The notes beneath the pieces are model-generated. The model saw only the letters and a list, made by a program, of their open reading frames with translations, did not search any database and was not told where the DNA came from. The translations under genes were made by a program, and so were the position numbers. DNA of 38,591 nucleotides from a virus (lineage: Duplodnaviria; Heunggongvirae; Uroviricota; Caudoviricetes), in IMG/VR virus record IMGVR_UViG_2541047697_000006; one strand, written 5' to 3'. Below, piece by piece: positions 1 to 28,516 of this stretch (position 1 is its first letter; every line of letters starts with the position of its first letter).

Positions 1-1743
1 ATGAAATACTCTAACAGCAATCTTATTATAAAAATAATACATCTACTTTCACAAAAAAGAGATGGTCTGATTTTGCTTGATGGGAACTGGGGTACAGGAA
101 AGACTCACTTTATCAGAAAAAAATTTCCCAAGTACTATGATAAAAACATTTTCTATTATATTTCCTTACTAGGTGTTAAATCCTTATCAGATTTCAAAGC
201 TAAAATTATAGATTGTTACTACCTGCAAGATATACAAACATTTAAATCCGGGCTCGAAAGTCTATCAGGGATAGGTAGCATTGCCAGCGGCTCACCTGCA
301 AGTGCCAATATTATTAACAGCATGTTTAATTCTATTGGTGCAAGTGTTAGAGAAAACATTTTATCAAAACTGGATGGTATTTTTATATTGGATGATATAG
401 AGAGAATATCCGAAACATCATTAGTTAGTGAAATTTTGACATATTGCCATTCTCTTTATATGTCCGAGATGAACTCAAATTTAGACTTTATTATTATTAC
501 CAATACATCAACTGAGTCTGGTTTAAAAATAGAACACAAGGAAAAACTCATTGCAGAAACACTTCATTATAATCCGCATCCAGAGGAAATATTGGATATA
601 GATATAATAAATGGAAAGCTTTCCCAATTCCCACAGGAAGATAAAATTCTCTTTGAGGATATAGTAAAAAATAACAACATAGTTAACATCCGTATTTTGA
701 TGCGTATTTTGGACACAGCTACGCCATTATATGAATACGTTAAATCATATCCTCATCTTTCTTGGAGAATACCATCAACAATTCTTTTAAACTCAATATG
801 CTCTTTCTTCATTTTATTATTTTTGCATAATCACTCTCTTGAGGAGCTTCTCAAGGACCAAGATCCAACATTTTTATTAAACACCGAGGAATCAAGTGAT
901 AGTGAGAGAGTGCTATGGTTAGCATTGAATAATTACAAAATAAAACCTGAGATTAAAAGGTATTATAGCGGACAAGCTTCATTAAATGACATATTGGATG
1001 TTTTGTTTTATGAAGCAAAACCGCTTACTATGAGAGAAATTGCAATATCAGTACGTCCAGAATTACATGAGATAAATGAAAAGGAACTTTCAAATACACT
1101 TGTCGACTTAATTTGCCGTAAGATTGATTGTAATTTCTATGAATGGATAAAAGCGTTTCAGAATTATGAGTATTTAACCACACATAAATACCTACCAAAA
1201 TCACCAATTATAACTCTAAAGTTTGTCACTTCGATTCTGAACGGATTCACTGACAATGAAGTTGCAGAATGCTTTGAGCTATACTCACTTGATAGAAAAA
1301 ATAGCTTAAATAGTGGTTTTGAAGATAGCAAATTGCTGTACTCAATTTCATTTTACCGTTATAAAAGCACAATCAAAATGCGTGAGCTCAACACTATTAG
1401 GTTGCAATTAGAATTGAATGGCTGGGCATCATTCAATGCTAACCAATTAACCACTTTAGATCCATTCGGAAATTATAAGCCGCTTGAAGTGCTTGGTGTA
1501 TCATTTGTAACAAAATGCGTTTTAAAGAATTGGGCAGTTAATGATATTGAGCAATTTAGTTCTTTCTTGCGTAGCAACTATCAAATCAGCAACATAAAAC
1601 AATTCGCCACTAATGAAAAAAACAAACTTATTTATCTTAGTCAAAAACTTGATATTTTTTGCCTTTCCTATAAAGAAAGCTTTAAATTTGGAGCCATATA
1701 CGATCTAAACAGAACAGTTAAAATTGCCATTAACAAATTATGA
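1..1743 (+). CDS. KAP-family P-loop NTPase (candidate abortive-infection/defence protein)
   Basis: Walker A GNWGTGKT at residues 28-35 and Walker B-like FILDDIER about 100 aa later, the N-terminal layout typical of KAP NTPases (PifA group). Very AT-rich compared with flanking phage genes. ORF starts exactly at window position 1. Confidence 0.6.
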   Translation: MKYSNSNLIIKIIHLLSQKRDGLILLDGNWGTGKTHFIRKKFPKYYDKNIFYYISLLGVKSLSDFKAKIIDCYYLQDIQTFKSGLESLSGIGSIASGSPASANIINSMFNSIGASVRENILSKLDGIFILDDIERISETSLVSEILTYCHSLYMSEMNSNLDFIIITNTSTESGLKIEHKEKLIAETLHYNPHPEEILDIDIINGKLSQFPQEDKILFEDIVKNNNIVNIRILMRILDTATPLYEYVKSYPHLSWRIPSTILLNSICSFFILLFLHNHSLEELLKDQDPTFLLNTEESSDSERVLWLALNNYKIKPEIKRYYSGQASLNDILDVLFYEAKPLTMREIAISVRPELHEINEKELSNTLVDLICRKIDCNFYEWIKAFQNYEYLTTHKYLPKSPIITLKFVTSILNGFTDNEVAECFELYSLDRKNSLNSGFEDSKLLYSISFYRYKSTIKMRELNTIRLQLELNGWASFNANQLTTLDPFGNYKPLEVLGVSFVTKCVLKNWAVNDIEQFSSFLRSNYQISNIKQFATNEKNKLIYLSQKLDIFCLSYKESFKFGAIYDLNRTVKIAINKL

Positions 1744-2517: not shown

Positions 2518-5103
2518 CTACTCTATCTCTTTTGCTTTTTTAATTATCAATTCAAGCTCTGTTAAACGAGATTCAATACGTTCACACCTTCTTCGCTGGA
2601 ATGCAGCCTCCAACCACAAACATTCATCTGGACGCAATCCCCAACGCTCACCAGCATGTACAACCAGTTCCGTTTCACCAGTATCGTATTCTTCAAAGTA
2701 TTCGTGAACGATGTCTTCTCCTTCAGGGGATTTAGCTATAAATGACACCTTGCGCTGTGCCATTACAGGTTGGTACTCATCATCCCATTTATCATGACAT
2801 AGCAAGCCAAATCTTGTTCCATCTATCCCCTTTGCAAGAAACGCATCTCTTACCTGCTGTGCAATTGCTCCGAAATGCCAACGAGCAGTATCCGAACCTT
2901 TAGCCTTAATATCGGACAACCACTGGTAAACGATAATATTTACGTCACCCCATGCGTCAAGAATTGCATCCTGATCCACCTCCATGATTTCTGAAAGTTG
3001 CTCTACTGTCAGTGGCTTTGTTTTCAATGTCTGGTCTGAAGTATTTATTGCCCCATTAGTTGCATATACTTGCGTCCACCGTTTAGATGATGTCCCACAT
3101 GATGACGTATTATCTTTATTAGCACTTATATAGCCATTAACCTCCGCTGACTGACCGATATACGAATATGAAGATGTTGATAAGGGAGATTTAAATATCC
3201 ATTGAGCATTGGTAAAGTCATAAATACCGGTATCACCTTTTTCACTAACATGAAAAGTTACATTCCGTAACGTATTCTTTGCATCATAACGGGCGGCTTG
3301 TGTTGTTGCCCTCGAAACAGTGAATCCTTTGTCATCAAGGTTTGCCTGCTCTATGACTTCACCACCAGGCATAATTTTACCAAGGCTTAACAAACCAGAG
3401 TTAGTGACAATATCATGGGTTGAATCAATGATAATACCAGGCTGATTTCTTGATGTTGTTTTTACATGCATGACCTGTTGTGGCATTAATGTGTAAAATG
3501 TAGTTTCTCGCCCACTATCACCATCTGGTATGCCATTTGTATTCCCCATTACAAGGTCATACCCACCTGCAATCATACGGAAAAACATTGCTTCTGGTTC
3601 ATATGTAAGATTGCTAACATCTGGCGTTCCGGTATCATTTGGATCTGCTATTTCATAGGCTCTTCCTGCACCTGCCTGTATTTGCTGCACCCCAAGATAA
3701 ACACCATCAAGTGTGTACTGATGCAAATATTTTCTGGTTGAAGAATATGCAGATCCAGCCTGACAAAAATAAATAGCAGTACCGTCACACGCAACTGTTT
3801 GCATATCCCTCACAAAATCGGCAATTTCAAATTCAAAAGTTGCTTCATTACGATAATCGTAATTGTACGCCTGCGGGTTAATAAATTTGCTGGTATCAAA
3901 TACTTTTACATAATAGCGAATTTGATCTGGTGTTGATGGGCTCTCACCAGGGCCAACATAACGTTTTGCTGTAGTAATCAGCCATCGACTCATAGGGTCG
4001 GTGCATAAAACATTTACCTGATTCTCGTAACCATCTTCCCATATGAGAAAAAACTCTGGTTCAATTTCACCACCATCAGTAGGGGTGAATCTGGTGATAT
4101 ACTTTGCGCGATCCTCTCCTTTAGCTGTGCCAGCTAACCCCCATATCTGTAACTGGCCTCTTGTGTTACGAAAACCAACGCGCCCTATGGTTAAACCAAG
4201 ACATTGATGTCCTAATTCTCTACTACCTTTAGTCTCCCAAAGAGGAGTTAACTCTTCATTCCCAAACCAATTATAAGCAACAACTTTATTAACTTCGTCA
4301 CCAGAACTAACGCTGCCACTCACATTTACCAAGCAATAAAGAACACTGTCATAATAATCAAGAACAGCACCCTGTATGACAGTATTTTTAATTGTTGCCA
4401 GTCGCAACCCTGACTTAACATGATTAGGAGTAGAAGGTCTGAAACCTGTATACATCCCCTTTTTTATAGTTTGTATTCTTTTTTCAGTAAAATCAGCATC
4501 TGGCAGTAATCGATTCTCTGTGCGAAAATAGCCATTTATATACTTATTTCCATCAAAAACTTGATCTGTTATATATGTATTACCCCTTAGATCAACAATC
4601 CTTCCTGTGATTTGTTTTTCTAACTCTTGAAAAGATAATGTGTCATCGGTGATGCCATCACCTTTTGCTCCCCATCCGCGAGGGTCAGCGTCATCACGCC
4701 ACCGAGACATCTGCAATTCATGATATTTTTTAGCACCTTCCGGGTCTTCTAATTGTTGTCTTAATTGGTCAGGATCGTACTTAAGCACATTCGGAAAATA
4801 GAACTGCTGCGTACCATATGCATCGTAAACAGCCATAGAATGGCCTTGCACGGTAACGAATTTGGAAATCTGTCCGTTGTATACCGGGTATCCAGCAGCA
4901 TTGATAACGATTGGCTGTGGCACCTGAACATAAGTACCATCTTCTCGTTCCAGATATACTGGAATCTGGTTTTCTGGATTTACCGGATCTGTGTCAATCT
5001 TACCGATATAAATTTTTCCATTTGCTACGGTTTTAAAAGAACTAGCCATTGTGAAGAGTTGCGATGGCATACCTATCACAACATTTGGGGTTATATCAGG
5101 CAT
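2518..5103 (-). CDS. Tailspike protein: P22 gp9-type head-binding N-domain, beta-helix-like central domain, C-terminal intramolecular chaperone (peptidase S74-like) domain
   Basis: N-terminus MPDITPNVV...[21 protein letters not shown]...[13 protein letters not shown]...NVLKYDPDQ matches the P22 tailspike head-binding domain as recalled. [11 protein letters not shown] motif. C-terminus has NTSDQTLK followed by about 170 aa typical of auto-cleaving chaperone domains. Start chosen at internal ATG 5103 (AGGA upstream), not ORF-track start 5196. Confidence 0.85.
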
Positions 5104-5454
5104 ATTAGTCATCCTGTTTGAAGATTTAGATATTGAAGAAAACGGAATGACTGCAGACAACGATGCAATTGTTTTGAAAAATAACCTTCTATTCATTTAA
5201 AAACCATGCAACATGAACAAAACGATTATTTTACAATACTCAAGAATCTTGATCAACAGGCATATTATTTATGCGCTTAATGCGTCACTTACAAAAATAA
5301 AAACAAGTAATACCTTTATTCCTATCGTCCATGATTTTTATTTTCAAACATTATTAAATAACAATTCCTATTTATAATATCTGTCATTTAATTTTCTCCA
5401 AATACAAGGAATCGCCGCAGCATTGCCGCAGTGATGTATTATTAATCAAAAAGA

Positions 5455-5534: not shown

Positions 5535-5693
5535 ATGGGAAGAGATGACCCGCAATTTAATCTGCGGATATCTTACGAATTAAAGGAAAAACTAAAACAG
5601 CGAGCCAAATCCAATGGCCGCTCTCTTAATTCAGAATTAGTTCAGATAGTGACTGATGCTGTATCAAAGCCATCCAAAATTTCAGGCTATTGA
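5535..5693 (+). CDS. mnt: Mnt-like ribbon-helix-helix repressor, interrupted by in-frame TGA at codon 53 (homology continues in frame to 5786)
   Basis: MGRDDPQFNLRISYELKEKLKQRAKSNGRSLNSELVQIVTDAVSKPSKISGY then TGA then DDAERIADEQSDLVKKMVFDTLKDLYKKPT; matches P22 Mnt (83 aa) as recalled, with Arg at the TGA position. Confidence 0.6.
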   Translation: MGRDDPQFNLRISYELKEKLKQRAKSNGRSLNSELVQIVTDAVSKPSKISGY

Positions 5694-5885
5694 GACGATG
5701 CGGAACGCATCGCTGATGAGCAGTCCGACCTTGTTAAGAAGATGGTGTTTGATACGCTGAAGGATTTGTACAAAAAACCCACCTGACGGTAGGTTAATTT
5801 TTGCATTTACCTGGGCCATATTGACTACTTATAAAATGAGATCAATATTTAATCGCCCAATAACGGGTGTATGTTGAGGTATATC

Positions 5886-13925: not shown

Positions 13926-14151
13926 CTGCTGCCGCCTTAGGTTTTCGACCAGGCTTTTTACGCTGTTTTTCTTCTGGCTCTGGCTCTGGCTCTGGCTCTG
14001 GCTCTGCAACATCCTTCAGAAGGTCATCCGGATGTGCAAACCAACCAGCATCCAGATATTCCTGAAGCTCTTCGGCTTTCACGATTTCAAAGTCGTAGCC
14101 AACGCCTTTCCACTTCTTCATGTCGCCATGACGAAAGATCATGTGTGTCAT
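13903..14151 (-). CDS. Small protein with (Glu-Pro)5 repeat and basic C-terminal tail, between coat and gp4
   Basis: ATG 14151 with GGAG 6 nt upstream; [25 protein letters not shown]...[24 protein letters not shown]...; overlaps the gp4 start. Confidence 0.45.
13975..14006. repeat. Perfect tandem hexanucleotide repeat (TGGCTC)x5
   Basis: Five exact copies at 13975..14004; encodes [10 protein letters not shown] on the - strand. Confidence 0.9.
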
Positions 14152-16415: not shown

Positions 16416-18581
16416 TTATTGAGGTGTCTCGGCTACTCCGCCGGAGGGGATTTGAACTTGACGCATAAGATTAGCGAAATCCATGCGTTGTGAATGAGTC
16501 TGGTCTGCATCTTTAAGAAGCAGCTCAGCGTTAGCACGAGCATCTTTGCTGCGCTGTTGCTGGAATTGACCTACGAGCTTGAGGTACTCACGCAGTTCTG
16601 CCTGCTTGTCGAGGTCCATATTGTTGAAGATTTCTGCAATCTTCGCGGCGTTGAGTTGGTTTTGGGCTTCAACCTTGGCGGCTTCAACCTGAATCTGCGC
16701 CTGTTGGTTCTCTGCCTTGAGCAATTCAGCCTGACCTTGCAGAAGGATACCCTGCGCCTGAATTTGCTCTGCTGATGGCTGCTGCGGCTGTTGTTGTGCC
16801 TGCTGTACCATCTCCATCTCTTCAGGTGTTTCTGGTTTCTTCAGCCCCATCATCACCAGTTGCTTGTTCGCGTACTCTCGCATCATCTCGACGCCTTTAC
16901 CGTCAAGCAGCGTGAAGTATTGCAGCATCAGCATCTGGAACTCTGGAGTACCTTGCGGAACCTTGGTTAGTAACTCCTGAATCTCTGCGCGGTTCTGTTC
17001 CTTCATGCTCTGGAAGGATGGCCCAACGTCCGTATAGCACTCATAGCGACCACGAATGTCGTTGAGTGTGACCACATTGCCGGACTGGTAATCGACAACT
17101 TGCGCATAGAGTTGAACGTCTTTCTCGCTTCCATCTTCAAGTGTCAGCGTTACATGACGAGGAACGTCATAAATATCGTTGACCATTGAGGCATAAATCT
17201 CGCCATCACGTCGCATTGCGGTAGCCAGGTTATCCTGGAACACGTATGTCTCAAGGTCTGCCCGCATGTTCAGTTGATTGACGGTATCGAAAGCGACCTG
17301 ACCATTTGCCGCCTGCGCATCCACACCAAGACTAGCCACCTCTTTCACTGCGTTGGTGGCAGCCTCAAGCATGTAAGCGTTGGCTTGCGGCACTTCAGGG
17401 TTTTCCATGTAGGAGATTGGACCAATCGGCAGGTCGTTACCGTTTTCATCGGTCTTGTTCTGCAGATAGTACGGATAGTCATCATTTCCACCGTACATGT
17501 ATTCGTAGCCTTCGATTTGCTCAGGGAAGAAGGTCGGTTTCTTCTTCGGTGAACGAGCAACAATATCGGCGTTGAATGACATGATCATGTTACGAAGGCG
17601 CTGACCGTCTTTCGTCAGCCTTACCACTCCTTCGTAGCACTCCTTGTCACCAGCGAATGACCATTCGCCATACACTGGAACGATTGGAATATGCTCTCCG
17701 GCTATCTTCTCGCGGTCTTTCAGTATCTGCGTGCAGGTGATGATCGACTTATACACACGCCGACGCTTCACCTTGCGCTCTGCTACCTTAATGAATCCAC
17801 GATTAGCCAGGTCGTCGATGACGTCTTTGATATCCTGCTGGTAATAGCTGACCGGCTCACCTGTCAGCGGGTCGCGGTAGATGAAGACCTTCTCTTTCTT
17901 CTCTTCGACCTCGTAATACTCAGCGACGTAGACGACATCATTCGATACCCAAGGGAACAGCCATGTATCGTTCGGATTCTGGAAAGATGGCAAGGTATCC
18001 GGATCAATACCGTAATCCTCTGCGAACTCTTTCCAGCCATTGCGTGACAAAGCGTTAATCACCGTGCAGTGCTTAGCGTCGCTCTTATCCATCTGCTTGC
18101 TATTGGCGTCCCATATGACGTGTGAGCAGGCTTCATGGATTGGAAGGCGTCGGATTACCTGATTGTTGCTTGTTGGATCGTTGTCTTCGTACTGCGTGAC
18201 CAGACGCCATGCACCAACGCCGGACTCTATCTGCTCACGAACGCCAACGTTAACGGCAATCTTTGCCGTGTTATGGCGCATATCAGTACGATACATCCCC
18301 ATCAACACATCGGCAGCATCAGGATTAGCGCCGTCTTTGGGTCGGAAGAGAACGTCGATAGGGTTCCGGCGCATCTCTGCGACCAGTTTCCTGACCACCG
18401 GGCGAACAACATCGAATTGTCCGCGATATTGCAGAGTCGTGTAGTTTGATAGCCAGTCATCCCATTGCGACACTCGGCTAAAATACAGGTCATTTGTCGC
18501 CTCGGTTCTGGCTTCATCGCTCGCCATCCAGTCTGCGTCAAACTTACACAGAATGGAATTGAGTCTGTTTTCGTCGGCCAT
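16416..18581 (-). CDS. Portal protein, P22 gp1-like
   Basis: 721 aa; ...[94 protein letters not shown]... near-colinear with the P22 portal as recalled. Confidence 0.92.
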
Positions 18582-18977
18582 TTAAGTTCTCCGTGCGATG
18601 GGCCTGATTGGGGCTGGTATCTTTTTCTCTTTTGGTTTTTTGATGTCGCGCATCATTTTTGCGAAGCGGCGCATCATGTATGCATAGCGAACGGCGGATA
18701 GCACGTCGTCGTTAAGCTTGACGATTTTCCCGTTTTCATCACGGTGATAGAGGCGGAACTCCTCAAAGAATGGCTCACAGGTGTTGAATACTTTGAAGCG
18801 ACCGTCGAGCATCATGTCTCGCAATTCAGTGATGCCAGGCTCAACAGCATTACCGCCATCAGGCCATGTCGCATGCTCCTGCAACATCATAAAACCAGCG
18901 TCCGCGTACTGCCCTTTAAGCTGCTCACCGCCGCCCTTCTCATGCTGGTTTCCGTCATGAGGCCATGCGGTTGGCAC
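18582..18977 (-). CDS. Terminase large subunit, C-terminal segment (after in-frame TGA)
   Basis: Same reading frame as 19002..20081. Segment lengths 359 + 1 + 8 + 131 = 499 codons, equal to P22 gp2 length as recalled. GTG at 18977 is only the ORF caller's alternative start. Confidence 0.7.
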   Translation of the reverse strand: MPTAWPHDGNQHEKGGGEQLKGQYADAGFMMLQEHATWPDGGNAVEPGITELRDMMLDGRFKVFNTCEPFFEEFRLYHRDENGKIVKLNDDVLSAVRYAYMMRRFAKMMRDIKKPKEKKIPAPIRPIARRT

Positions 18978-19001
18978 TTTATGCGCCCATGATTTAACAG
19001 C

Positions 19002-20081
19002 TCACCACGCCTGAACGGCTGTCTTTTCTTTCGCCTTCCACACGCGTGAAACGTAGATTGTGTCTGCGTCCTTATCCCACCAAAGCTGAACCTGCGCCTG
19101 AGGGTGATCCCATCCGAAATCCATCCCACCAATTACGTAGAAGTGATCAGGACACTCGAACGGCTGACACTTAATCGTCTCTTCCGGTATCTGGAAGATT
19201 CGACCGCTACCCATCGTAGGAATACCGCGAGCACGCGCCTCTCTCTCATGCTCTGGATAGGATGCGATGATTTGCTCTTTCTGCTCGTCGGTATAGTGCT
19301 CAGCGTCATAGATGGTCATGTTGACCACTTTCTGCGACTTGCTGGGGTTCTTCAGGAACTTGGTAACAACGTCAGACATCCCCATCAGCGGGGTAAACGT
19401 CAGAATTGAGAATTGCCCGTATTTGTTGGTACGGGTAAGCCCTTCGCCATAAATGCTGTATGGTGGTTCTTCGTCAAACCACACGCCGTGGATTGTGTCA
19501 CCCTGCCAGCGAGCACGGCCTTGCGAGTATGGTTTGAAGTAGCAGATTGAAATGCCATCTTCAACGCCATCAGCCGTGTGATGCTTAACCAGAAGATGAT
19601 CAACAAGGTTCGGAAAGAAAGGAGACTTCTTCCAGCTAATGATGTCTTCTTTCGGTATGGAACCGTAGCCAGGTTCACCATTCTCTTCGATACGACCGCA
19701 CAGGATGCGTTGAGTCGTTTTGGTTACAGTCTCGTTTGTCTCTCCACCAATCCAGAAGACAACAGGCTCATAGAAACGCTTACCTTTCCACTCACCGCCA
19801 TATTTACCATCAGCAGGATAGCCTTTTGTGCCCGGATAACGCCCGGTAAGGTGAAACGCGACTTCAGCAGCACCAGTAAATGACTTACCAAGCTGGTTAC
19901 CAGCCATAAAACATCGCTCTGGATAGTCATGCCCGGCGTCGATGAACTCACGCTGTTTGCTGTATGGCGTAAATTCATATAGCAGGTGTGTGTTACGGTA
20001 GTTCTCTTCTTCTTCGAGTAGCTCGAGCAATTCGATTTGCTCTTCGTCGCTCAGGTTATCAAGAATCGCGTCCAGTTCCAC
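19002..20081 (-). CDS. Terminase large subunit, N-terminal ATPase segment (ends at in-frame TGA 19002..19004)
   Basis: [83 protein letters not shown]... matches P22 gp2 as recalled. Walker A-like GNQLGKS. Confidence 0.85.
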
Positions 20082-20547
20082 GGTTGAATAGCTCCTTGAT
20101 ACGAGAGCGTCGCTTATCGCGATCTCCCTTATCAGGTGTCACGTCTTCAACTTGCGACTGCTCTTTGAGGCCCAAATCACGGGCGATGATGTTAGCGTTG
20201 AGAAGGTCAGCAGCAGCGCCAGAGAATTTCTGGTCGTAGATGACCTGTTCTGCTCGCGTAACGACTTCAGATAAATCTTCTCGCAGGCGATATGTGCGCC
20301 ATGTTTCAAGCGTCACATCAATGAACAGAGTGAGTCCGGTAATGGTCATCGCTCGCATCTTGGCGATAGGCTCTTGTATCACTTCACCCTGATACGAGAA
20401 CGCCTTCATCTCCCATAGCGGGTTAGCTTCCACCCACTCGAAGTATTCACAACAAGCAGCCCACAGCGCCTCAGGCGATTCGAATTTAGGGTTTCGCCCA
20501 TGACTACTGCGGGCCTCCCAAAATCGGTTGCCCTTTGGTGCTGCCAT
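20059..20547 (-). CDS. Terminase small subunit, P22 gp3-like
   Basis: 162 aa from the second Met; [46 protein letters not shown]... matches P22 gp3 as recalled; overlaps the large-subunit start. Confidence 0.85.
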
Positions 20548-20570
20548 ATTCATCTCACTTAGTTGTTATT

Positions 20571-23440: not shown

Positions 23441-23516
23441 TGGTGCTGATTAACGGACTTGAACCGCCACCCATTCGCTTACAAGGCGACTGCTCTACCA
23501 TTGGAGCTAAACCAGC
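23441..23516 (-). tRNA. tRNA-Thr (anticodon UGU), phage-encoded
   Basis: Hand-folded cloverleaf: acceptor GCUGGUU/AAUCAGC, D-arm GCUC-CAAUGGUA-GAGC, anticodon loop CUUGUAA, T-loop UUCAAGU, 3' ACCA. Resembles E. coli tRNA-Thr. Confidence 0.6.
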
Positions 23517-23521
23517 ATGTT

Positions 23522-23596
23522 TGGCGGGACAGCGTGGACTCGAACCACGATAAGAAGGTTAACAGCCTTCCGTAATGACCTTTATACGACTGACCC
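23522..23596 (-). tRNA. tRNA-Asn (anticodon GUU), phage-encoded; stems slightly imperfect
   Basis: Acceptor GGGUCAG/CUGUCCC (one U-U), anticodon stem GAAGG/CCUUC, loop CUGUUAA, T-arm CGUGG-UUCGAGU-CCACG, 3' GCCA. Confidence 0.55.
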
Positions 23597-26629: not shown

Positions 26630-27066
26630 GCAGCCTTGTCTCCCCATCTTGCTTTCCACTCCAGAGCCAGTCGCGCTTCGTCTGACCACTTAACGCCACG
26701 TTCTGTACCGAATGCCTGTATAAGCTCTAATAGCTCCGCAAATTCGCCTACCCGCATCCTACTGGTTGACTGGCCTATTACCACAAAGCCAGTCCCGGCA
26801 AGGTTAGGAACAACGTCCTGCTGCTTTAAGGCTGCGGTAAACACACACTTCCAGCTTTCTGCATCCAGCCAGCGACCATGCCATTCAACCTGACGAGAGA
26901 CGTCACCAAGGCAAGCCCAAAGCTTTCGATTCTGGTCTAAGCTGCGGTTGCGTTCCTGAATGGTTACTACGATTGGTTTGGTTGGGTCTGGAAGGATTTG
27001 CTGTACTGCGTGAATAGCGTTTTGCTGATGTGCTGGAGATCGAATTTCAAAGGTTAGCTTTTTCAT
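26626..27066 (-). CDS. ninB: NinB (Orf-family recombination mediator)
   Basis: MKKLTFEIRSPAHQQNAIHAVQQILPDPTKPIVVTIQERNRSLDQNRKLWACLGDV... essentially lambda NinB as recalled. Confidence 0.9.
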   Translation of the reverse strand: MKKLTFEIRSPAHQQNAIHAVQQILPDPTKPIVVTIQERNRSLDQNRKLWACLGDVSRQVEWHGRWLDAESWKCVFTAALKQQDVVPNLAGTGFVVIGQSTSRMRVGEFAELLELIQAFGTERGVKWSDEARLALEWKARWGDKAA

Positions 27067-27083
27067 GACTTCCCTCTCCCCCA

Positions 27084-27113
27084 AATAAAAAGGCCTGCGA
27101 TTACCAGCAGGCC
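27084..27113 (-). terminator. tR2-like rho-independent terminator between helicase and ninB
   Basis: GGCCTGC-gattacca-GCAGGCC stem followed on the - strand by TTTTTATTTG. Confidence 0.55.
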
Positions 27114-27139
27114 TGTTATTAGCTCAGTGATGTAGATGG

Positions 27140-28516
27140 TCATACGTCAGCCCCTTGTGCATATCGTCTGCCACGCGCAGCAGGTGCATTTGATGCTGTA
27201 CAAATCTGTCTGGCTTCATCCTGGTCACATGCAACAAAGTGTCCGTTACAGAACCGCTGGTAAACCGTACCAAGTGAGCCAAAACGGTTTTTCGTCACGA
27301 TGATTTCAGCAAATGGCGCGGCGCTACTGTTCTCGTCATATACCGCTTCCCGATAGAGCATGATGATTGAGTCTGCGTCCTGCTCAATGCTTCCTGAATC
27401 ACGCAAATCTGCGTTTGTCGGGCGTTTGTTTGGTCGCTTCTCAACATCGCGTGAAAGCTGACTTAGGGAGATAACAGGCGTTTTCAGGTCTTTCGCCATC
27501 GCCTTAAGGCTTCCGGAGATGTGAGCAATTGCGAGGTCGTTGCGGTCTGCTTTCGGCTTCTCAATCAGGCCAAGATAATCCGCCATGATGAGTGACAGGT
27601 TTGGATTTTCCTGTTTGTGCCGTTCTGCGATTGAGCGAATTTCTTCGACAGATAACCGCGAGGCATCGACTACCCATACATCCAAATCTGCAAGCTGACT
27701 CATGCCGTTAGCAACGCGCGCCCAGCCTTCGTCATCCATCGATGCAGGATTTCGCAGCACGCTAACCGACATCCTCCCGGCGTTGGCAATGCTTCGCTCT
27801 GCAATCTGCAATGCGCTCATTTCCATCGAGAAAATCAATACTCCGCGCCGGACGTCAGAACCAGGAATAACGCGGCTTGCAACGCCTTCGGCAATCTTCA
27901 GCGCCAGTTCGGTTTTCCCCATACCAGGACGAGCGGCGATAATCACCAGGTCTTCCGCGTTCATCCCTCCGGTGATGGCGTCAAGTTCTTCGATTCCGGT
28001 CTTCAGGGTATCTGACTCTTCTCCGTTCCTCAGACGCCTGTCAAGCGTGTCAGTGTAGTCAGTGATGATTTCCCCTAACCGTACAGGTTTAACCTCGTCA
28101 CGGGGCTTTCTGATGGCTGAGAGCCGTTTTACAAGTTCATCCATCGCCTGACTCGATGCGTCGATGGTTCCGCTTTGGATTGGTTCACGCATTTCATCCA
28201 TGATTTCCAGCACCAGACGGCGGTGATAGTTATCCGCGACCATTCCGGCATATCCCTTCAGGTTTGCGGCACTCGGGCAGTTTTTGCTGGTCATCAGGAT
28301 TGACATGAAATGCTCCTCTCCGCATTCCTCAGCAACCATCAGCGCGTCGATTAGGTTTCTGTTTCGCGCCTGCTTGCGGATAACCTCGAAGGCTTTTCTG
28401 TAGAGCGGAATTGAAAACGCTTCCGGCTCCAGCGTTGCCAGAACGTCACTGGCGGTTGGAGTTAATCCACCAATCAGCAGGCCACCGATAACGCTCGCTT
28501 CGATATCCTGTCTCAT
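27140..28516 (-). CDS. Replicative DNA helicase (DnaB family, P22 gp12-like)
   Basis: 458 aa; Walker [13 protein letters not shown] and DnaB-like C-terminal motifs. Confidence 0.85.

Follow-up and report, generated by a model that had tools for sequence, protein, structure and literature searches.

An in-frame TGA in the large terminase gene of a P22-like Escherichia coli prophage, probably an early step of prophage decay

Introduction

Can a P22-like prophage still package DNA once the gene of its large terminase (TerL) carries an in-frame stop codon, and is such a stop an artefact, a device of gene expression or a lesion? In headful packaging, the TerL nuclease performs both the initiating and the terminating cuts. 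The TerL of phage P22, gp2, comprises an ATPase domain (residues 38-284), a nuclease domain (residues 313-482, with the catalytic D321), a linker between both domains and a basic tail (residues 483-499) (PMC11728703).

The question arises in a 38,591-nt stretch of viral DNA (IMG/VR record IMGVR_UViG_2541047697_000006), hereafter the window, for which a preliminary description made from the sequence alone had proposed that DNA packaging is impossible unless a UGA codon in the TerL gene is read through. The window (38.6 kb) aligned end to end, with 99.8% identity, to a prophage located downstream of thrS in E. coli A3 (NZ_CP028771.1, 2514042-2552617), and its sequence marks it as a P22-like (Lederbergvirus-type) prophage of E. 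coli.

Results

A P22-type TerL gene interrupted at codon 360

The ORF list of the window contains a 359-aa ORF at 19002..20081 and a 131-aa ORF at 18582..18977, both on the minus strand. Read in one frame from 20081 to 18582, the sequence holds a single internal stop, followed by eight sense codons (AVKSWAHK, 18978..19001) and then by a GTG at 18975..18977, exactly the arrangement that the preliminary description had put forward. The same description had equated the summed length of 499 codons with that of P22 gp2, which agrees with the 1500 nt (499 codons) of P22 gene 2, and had claimed that similarity continues across the stop, which is borne out by intact homologs collinear with the whole gene, such as the A3 copy, one nucleotide apart over 1500.

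Once restored, the TerL matched the Pfam families Terminase_6N at residues 57-302 (E=1e-47) and Terminase_6C, an RNase H-like nuclease, at residues 318-470 (E=3e-28), and the P22 gp2 nuclease domain (PDB 4dkw) aligned to its residues 289-497 (E=8e-127). At the DNA level, identity amounts to 87.8% with P22 gene 2 and to 97-98% with coliphages including IME10 (97.9%) and APC_JM3.2. The gene lies in a TerS-TerL-portal order (Table 1); the small terminase (TerS) has a GP3_package Pfam match, obtained on a metagenome scaffold that carries the same allele (L008), and is annotated as a DNA-packaging protein in A3. By sequence, the Pfam domains, the identity with P22 and the TerS-TerL-portal synteny together identify the gene as a P22-type TerL. 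It thus resembles P22 gene 2, whose nuclease structure is 4DKW, in length, gene order, nucleotide identity and domains, although the window element is an E. coli prophage, closest to the prophages of A3, H22 and AHB29 and to coliphage IME10.

Table 1. Features of the window referred to in the text
Feature	Position	Strand	Remarks
TerL gene (large terminase, P22 gp2 homolog)	18582..20081	-	499 codons plus terminal TAA; GTG start; broken at codon 360
In-frame TGA, TerL codon 360	19002..19004	-	ancestral codon GGA (Gly); context UGG-UGA-G
Mutated base of TerL	19004 (gene nt 1078)	-	coding strand G to T, plus strand C to A
Truncated TerL, coding part, 359 aa	19005..20081	-	N-terminal hairpin, complete ATPase domain, linker, nuclease beta1-beta3 with D321
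Nuclease-domain remnant, residues 361-499 plus terminal stop	18582..19001	-	predicted untranslated; includes the basic C-terminal tail
Small terminase gene (gp3 type), intact	20059..20553	-	3' end shares 23 nt with the TerL start
Portal gene (gp1 type), intact, 721 aa	16416..18581	-	begins directly behind the TerL stop (TAAATG)
KAP-family P-loop NTPase gene, 580 aa, intact	1..1743	+	prophage end beyond the tailspike; Pfam PF07693, E=3.5e-7
mnt (Arc-family repressor) homolog	5535..5786	+	in-frame TGA at 5691..5693 for CGA (Arg), after residue 52

Codon 360 among relatives

Over its 1500 nt, the TerL gene differs from the A3 copy solely at nt 1078 (window 19004), which is G in A3 and T in the window. 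The copies of H22 and AHB29 are 3 and 6 nt apart from it, respectively, that of phage IME10 is 32 nt apart and that of P22 is 199 nt apart. Alignment to P22 and other homologs, the route to the ancestral codon that the preliminary description had suggested, returned glycine at position 360 in all five: the codon is GGA in A3, H22, AHB29 and IME10. In P22, where the sequence around the lesion is conserved and reads AVQAWGAVKSWA, codon 360 is GGT as against TGA in the window. A degenerate search of IMG/VR with the codon-360 context found a Gly codon in at least 120 contigs and TGA in one contig. As judged from this comparison, the TGA is a lesion that derives from a Gly codon by a single G-to-T change.

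In the second near-identical prophage, that of E. coli A26 (NZ_CP028749.1, 2203000-2211000), about 306 bp are missing across window positions 18703..19008, so codon 360 is unreadable there. That prophage shows many scattered small indels, and its TerS, TerL and portal genes are all annotated as frameshifted; these lesions point either to a separate decay of the packaging genes or to errors of long-read assembly.

Distribution of the TGA allele

The preliminary description had named a sense codon at 19002..19004 in read data as a refuting finding; independent assemblies instead carry the same TGA. In a collection of 15 billion proteins, the exact 359-aa product occurs on 34 contigs, the longest of 4.79 Mb (45 index blocks). 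It is deposited under EQN85273.1 (E. coli HVH 24) and STN00712.1, and is also encoded on two ENA infant-gut metagenome scaffolds (SAMN04436698 and SAMN04436697), while the TGA allele is present on IMG/VR contig UViG_3300045988_105086 as well. Carrier DNA from four contigs showed zero substitutions relative to the window over stretches of 7.7, 21.1, 12.7, 3.1 and 4.8 kb, the sole difference in the stretches read being one unit of a hexamer repeat, and 22 further places have identical neighbouring proteins around the truncated TerL. Because the same product and substitution-free DNA recur across independent carriers, the TGA stop is, on this sequence evidence, a genuine allele of a single recent origin, always found in the same prophage. 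The allele, probably clone-wide, is not a quirk of one assembly.

Consequences for the TerL protein

The 359-aa product matches Terminase_6N at residues 57-302 (E=6e-48) and has no Terminase_6C match in Pfam, whereas the remnant ORF at 18582..18977 covers positions 55-154 of the 155 positions of the Terminase_6C profile; a complete nuclease domain is present on one polypeptide only if the TGA is read through. The truncated TerL retains a P-loop (A60-x4-G65-K66-S67) and the acidic D203-E204-E205, and A60, G65, K66 and D203-E204-E205 are invariant in 48 homologs.

In the AlphaFold model of a homolog with 91% identity (mean pLDDT 88), strands 315-321, 328-336 and 341-350 are followed by a helix at 355-366, and codon 360 is placed by this model within that helix, the first of the RNase H-like nuclease domain. 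About two thirds of the nuclease domain are lost through the stop, and P370, W373, P374, D376, G377, D458, D459 and R465, all invariant in the 48 homologs (down to 49% identity), lie downstream of it. The preliminary description had the TerL deprived of its C-terminal nuclease domain: most of the domain is indeed lost, but the stop falls inside it and beta1-beta3 are kept together with D321. Since the nuclease makes the headful cuts and most of that domain is missing, a TerL of this kind would be unable to complete packaging.

Recoding signals, suppressor tRNAs and split homologs

Two tRNA genes, for Thr(TGT) and Asn(GTT), are all that was found in the window, and a phage-encoded suppressor tRNA is thereby ruled out. 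They lie at 23441..23596 on the minus strand, with the Q antiterminator gene on one side and the holin gene on the other. A search of 18400..20300 against Rfam gave no match at E<=1, and folding of the 81 nt at the stop did not surpass that of shuffled sequences (z = -0.86); a selenocysteine or readthrough element was rejected on these two results.

A naturally split TerL was likewise ruled out by the length distribution of homologs. Homologs that end at the stop and are followed by a separate downstream gene, the other refuting finding named beforehand, did not turn up: every intact homolog, down to 49% identity, is one polypeptide chain of 464-511 aa with both domains, and none is naturally split near residue 359. 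Shorter homolog entries in databases are scattered truncations or fusions with differing end points, one of them an independent frameshift near codon 353 in E. coli TA054. By eye, no ribosome-binding site was seen before the downstream GTG (18977) or the downstream ATG codons.

Among the 48 homologs, column 360 holds A (21), S (6), R (6), G (5), P (3), N (2), I (2), V (2) or M (1), and an aromatic residue in none. Of the stop codons, UGA is the leakiest in E. coli: in a K-12 reporter system, Trp-tRNA decodes it at rates of about 2% (37 C) and 4% (25 C) (PMC10570021). Because column 360 is variable and UGA is leaky, some full-length TerL with Trp360 is expected, in a small amount, and this protein might be active.

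Comparison with the A3 prophage

The two prophages, which share gene order and an internal stop in the mnt homolog, differ at 82 alignment columns. Of these differences, 37 are substitutions clustered at 26700..27956, all of them within ninB or the 3' part of the gene for the replicative helicase, a patch that resembles a short tract of recombination. Elsewhere in the 38.6 kb there are about 20 isolated substitutions and a few other single-base indels. Relative to A3, the TerL change is the only new stop or frameshift in the window, and the late genes of A3 are all intact according to PGAP apart from its own coat-gene frameshift. The coat protein gene, which has indels and is annotated as frameshifted in A3, is intact in the window, and on scaffold L008, which carries the TGA, the gene call gives a coat protein of 431 aa. 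To judge by the sequence, the TerL stop seems to be the first lethal damage to a prophage that is complete in other respects.

The KAP NTPase gene is intact in the window; in A3 it is broken by a 1-bp deletion, at window position 117. Its product matches the PADLOC candidate defence family PDC-S49 (E=3e-16).

The stop in the mnt homolog

The preliminary description had seen the same type of lesion in the mnt homolog, and an in-frame TGA is indeed present there (Table 1). The 52-aa product still covers the whole Arc-like ribbon-helix-helix domain (PF03869, profile positions 2-49 of 50), and only the C-terminal part is lost. In IMG/VR, the codon is CGA in 49 contigs and TGA in 2. None of the three ORFs neighbouring the mnt homolog matches an antirepressor family.

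This TGA is common to A3, where PGAP reports an internal stop, and to a divergent IMG/VR prophage (contig 2740892426_000004) that was not recovered by the scan for the TerL TGA. Because it is present in these two prophages, neither of which has the TerL stop, the mnt stop predates the latter. A shared cause of both UGA codons, such as UGA suppression by the host, was ruled out on this ground; moreover, the changes are different, namely a C-to-T transition (CGA to TGA) in mnt and a G-to-T transversion (GGA to TGA) in TerL.

Discussion

Most probably, the window carries a nonsense-inactivated TerL in a P22-like, packaging-defective prophage that is vertically inherited in one E. coli clone, as an early stage of prophage decay. 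A recent single-base substitution turned Gly360 (GGA) into an opal codon, and translation would stop in the first alpha-helix of the nuclease domain, leaving a 359-aa product that keeps the ATPase and is without D376, D458, D459 and the basic C-terminal tail. Such a truncated TerL would neither cut concatemeric DNA nor form a working headful-packaging motor. Upon induction, the prophage would be expected to replicate, to build procapsids and to lyse the cell, with few or no infectious particles released. The allele would have arisen once and been passed down with the chromosome of one clone, and the 99.8% identity of the whole prophage with that of A3 speaks for a recent origin. Lesions of this type are common, as TerL is independently frameshifted in E. 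coli TA054 and in 2 of 88 IMG/VR relatives. The loss of packaging that this scenario implies is likely, and vertical rather than horizontal spread is suggested by the identity of the prophage copies. Some room for residual particle production might be left by the leakiness of UGA and by the fact that the window shows no other disruptive difference from the PGAP-validated genes of A3, save for the older mnt stop.

Two readings would make the stop something other than a mutation of the gene, and we give neither of them any appreciable chance. A sequencing or assembly error hiding a true GGA would fit with a gene that is one base away from the nearest complete genome, and with an allele found in none of the 5,426 complete RefSeq E. 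coli genomes (no identical copy, best 99.9%) and, in a scan for the allele, in none of the GTDB species representative genomes. However, the identical product and DNA come from separate projects and sample types, namely isolate drafts, the 4.79-Mb contig, the two metagenome scaffolds and the IMG/VR contig, and the substitution is atypical for a long-read error; recurrence of the exact truncated protein with identical DNA in independent assemblies rules out sequencing error as the cause of the TGA. Just as implausible is a programmed recoding (selenocysteine or regulated readthrough), or the use of the two ORFs as separate ATPase and nuclease subunits. Both ORFs are in frame and the TerL and mnt lesions of the prophage are both UGA, yet the mnt stop is older and unrelated to that of TerL, and the TGA is no conserved feature of the relatives; a single mutation sets the gene apart from a GGA copy that matches it everywhere else. 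No dedicated downstream signal could therefore have evolved, since the flanks are identical to those of the GGA-bearing relatives, and neither an Rfam match nor an unusual structure was found. As for two subunits, no homolog is divided at codon 360, the break would fall inside the RNase H fold after beta3, and no Shine-Dalgarno sequence is evident at the downstream GTG and ATG codons.

The other two readings accept the mutation and differ on what it does or why it persists. In the one, which we find unlikely, tRNA-Trp readthrough would supply a few per cent or less of active Trp360 TerL, so that a lower burst of infectious particles would still allow horizontal spread. Position 360 takes nine residues in the family, including Arg, Ile and Met, and appears unconstrained; the remaining late genes appear intact; readthrough of UGA in K-12 reaches the per cent level, and terminase is catalytic and no stoichiometric component of the virion (PMC11728703). 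On the other hand, neither a readthrough-promoting structure nor a suppressor tRNA was found in the window, and none of the 48 sequences has an aromatic residue at column 360. The RF2 variant of K-12 is unusually weak, so UGA readthrough is probably lower in natural isolates. The allele moreover has no diversity and a constant neighbourhood, as for a chromosomal marker of one clone, and in IMG/VR one TGA stands against at least 120 relatives with Gly. That the opal codon throttles TerL production instead of abolishing it, with near-cognate Trp insertion at a structurally tolerant position yielding a little active TerL in amounts that vary with temperature and growth state, is quite improbable; if true, rare infectious particles would be formed, more of them at lower temperature, where UGA readthrough doubles, and the presence of an apparently dead element in samples of different projects and types would be explained. 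The remaining reading, an adaptive inactivation (domestication), also seems improbable to us. Host selection instead of drift would have favoured the knockout, stopping phage release while keeping the prophage-borne benefits of immunity and of the KAP NTPase gene as a candidate defence gene. The same gene has been disrupted independently, by a frameshift near codon 353 in E. coli TA054, by the deletion of about 306 bp with further indels in A26, and in 2 of 88 IMG/VR relatives; terminase genes are among those preferentially lost from degraded prophages (PMC7744054), and the KAP NTPase gene frameshifted in A3 is intact here. However, the lysis genes are intact, so an induced cell dies anyway and any host benefit is indirect at best, and the A26 lesions, with small indels scattered throughout, may be long-read assembly errors. 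The 88 IMG/VR relatives with the full TerL gene comprise 85 with an intact ORF of 490-505 aa, two with a frameshift and one without a stop in the stretch read; a background of 2-3% of broken TerL fits neutral decay. Diversity among the carriers is zero.

As a packaging-defective element in early decay, the window prophage is like other cryptic or defective prophages in that a point lesion strikes a lytic-cycle gene, terminase being among those lost preferentially, while the rest of the element is retained. It differs from them by its very early stage, with one nonsense codon in an otherwise complete prophage and with neither deletions nor insertion sequences. With UGA readthrough by near-cognate tRNA-Trp in E. 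coli and its phages, it shares the identity of the stop and its per-cent-level reading in K-12; unlike in such systems, the stop is not conserved among relatives, no stimulatory element accompanies it, and the extension is the essential rest of a catalytic fold rather than an optional add-on domain.

That a point mutation inactivates a lytic gene of a prophage is well known. Gene-content tools would score this prophage as intact, yet it is probably unable to package DNA, and within its host clone it ought to be left out of any tally of active phages or generalized transducers. As a single-base marker of the carrier clone, the TGA is also handy. Finally, the TGA prophage and its intact A3 sister, which has GGA at codon 360, form a natural isogenic pair in which the amount of terminase required by a P22-like phage could be studied.

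Additional observations

The tailspike ORF (2518..5196, minus strand) has 892 aa in the ORF list, compared with 861 codons for the annotated gene in A3, and differs from the latter at 3396..3544 by a compensated pair of 1-bp indels together with two substitutions.

A perfect tandem hexamer repeat (TCTGGC, 5.7 units) lies at 13973..14006 on the minus strand, where the first listed start of a gp4-like ORF (SQSQSQ...) overlaps a small ORF (EPEPEP...). Its copy number varies between otherwise identical prophages: relative to the window, A3 has three units fewer (18 bp) and scaffold L008 one fewer.
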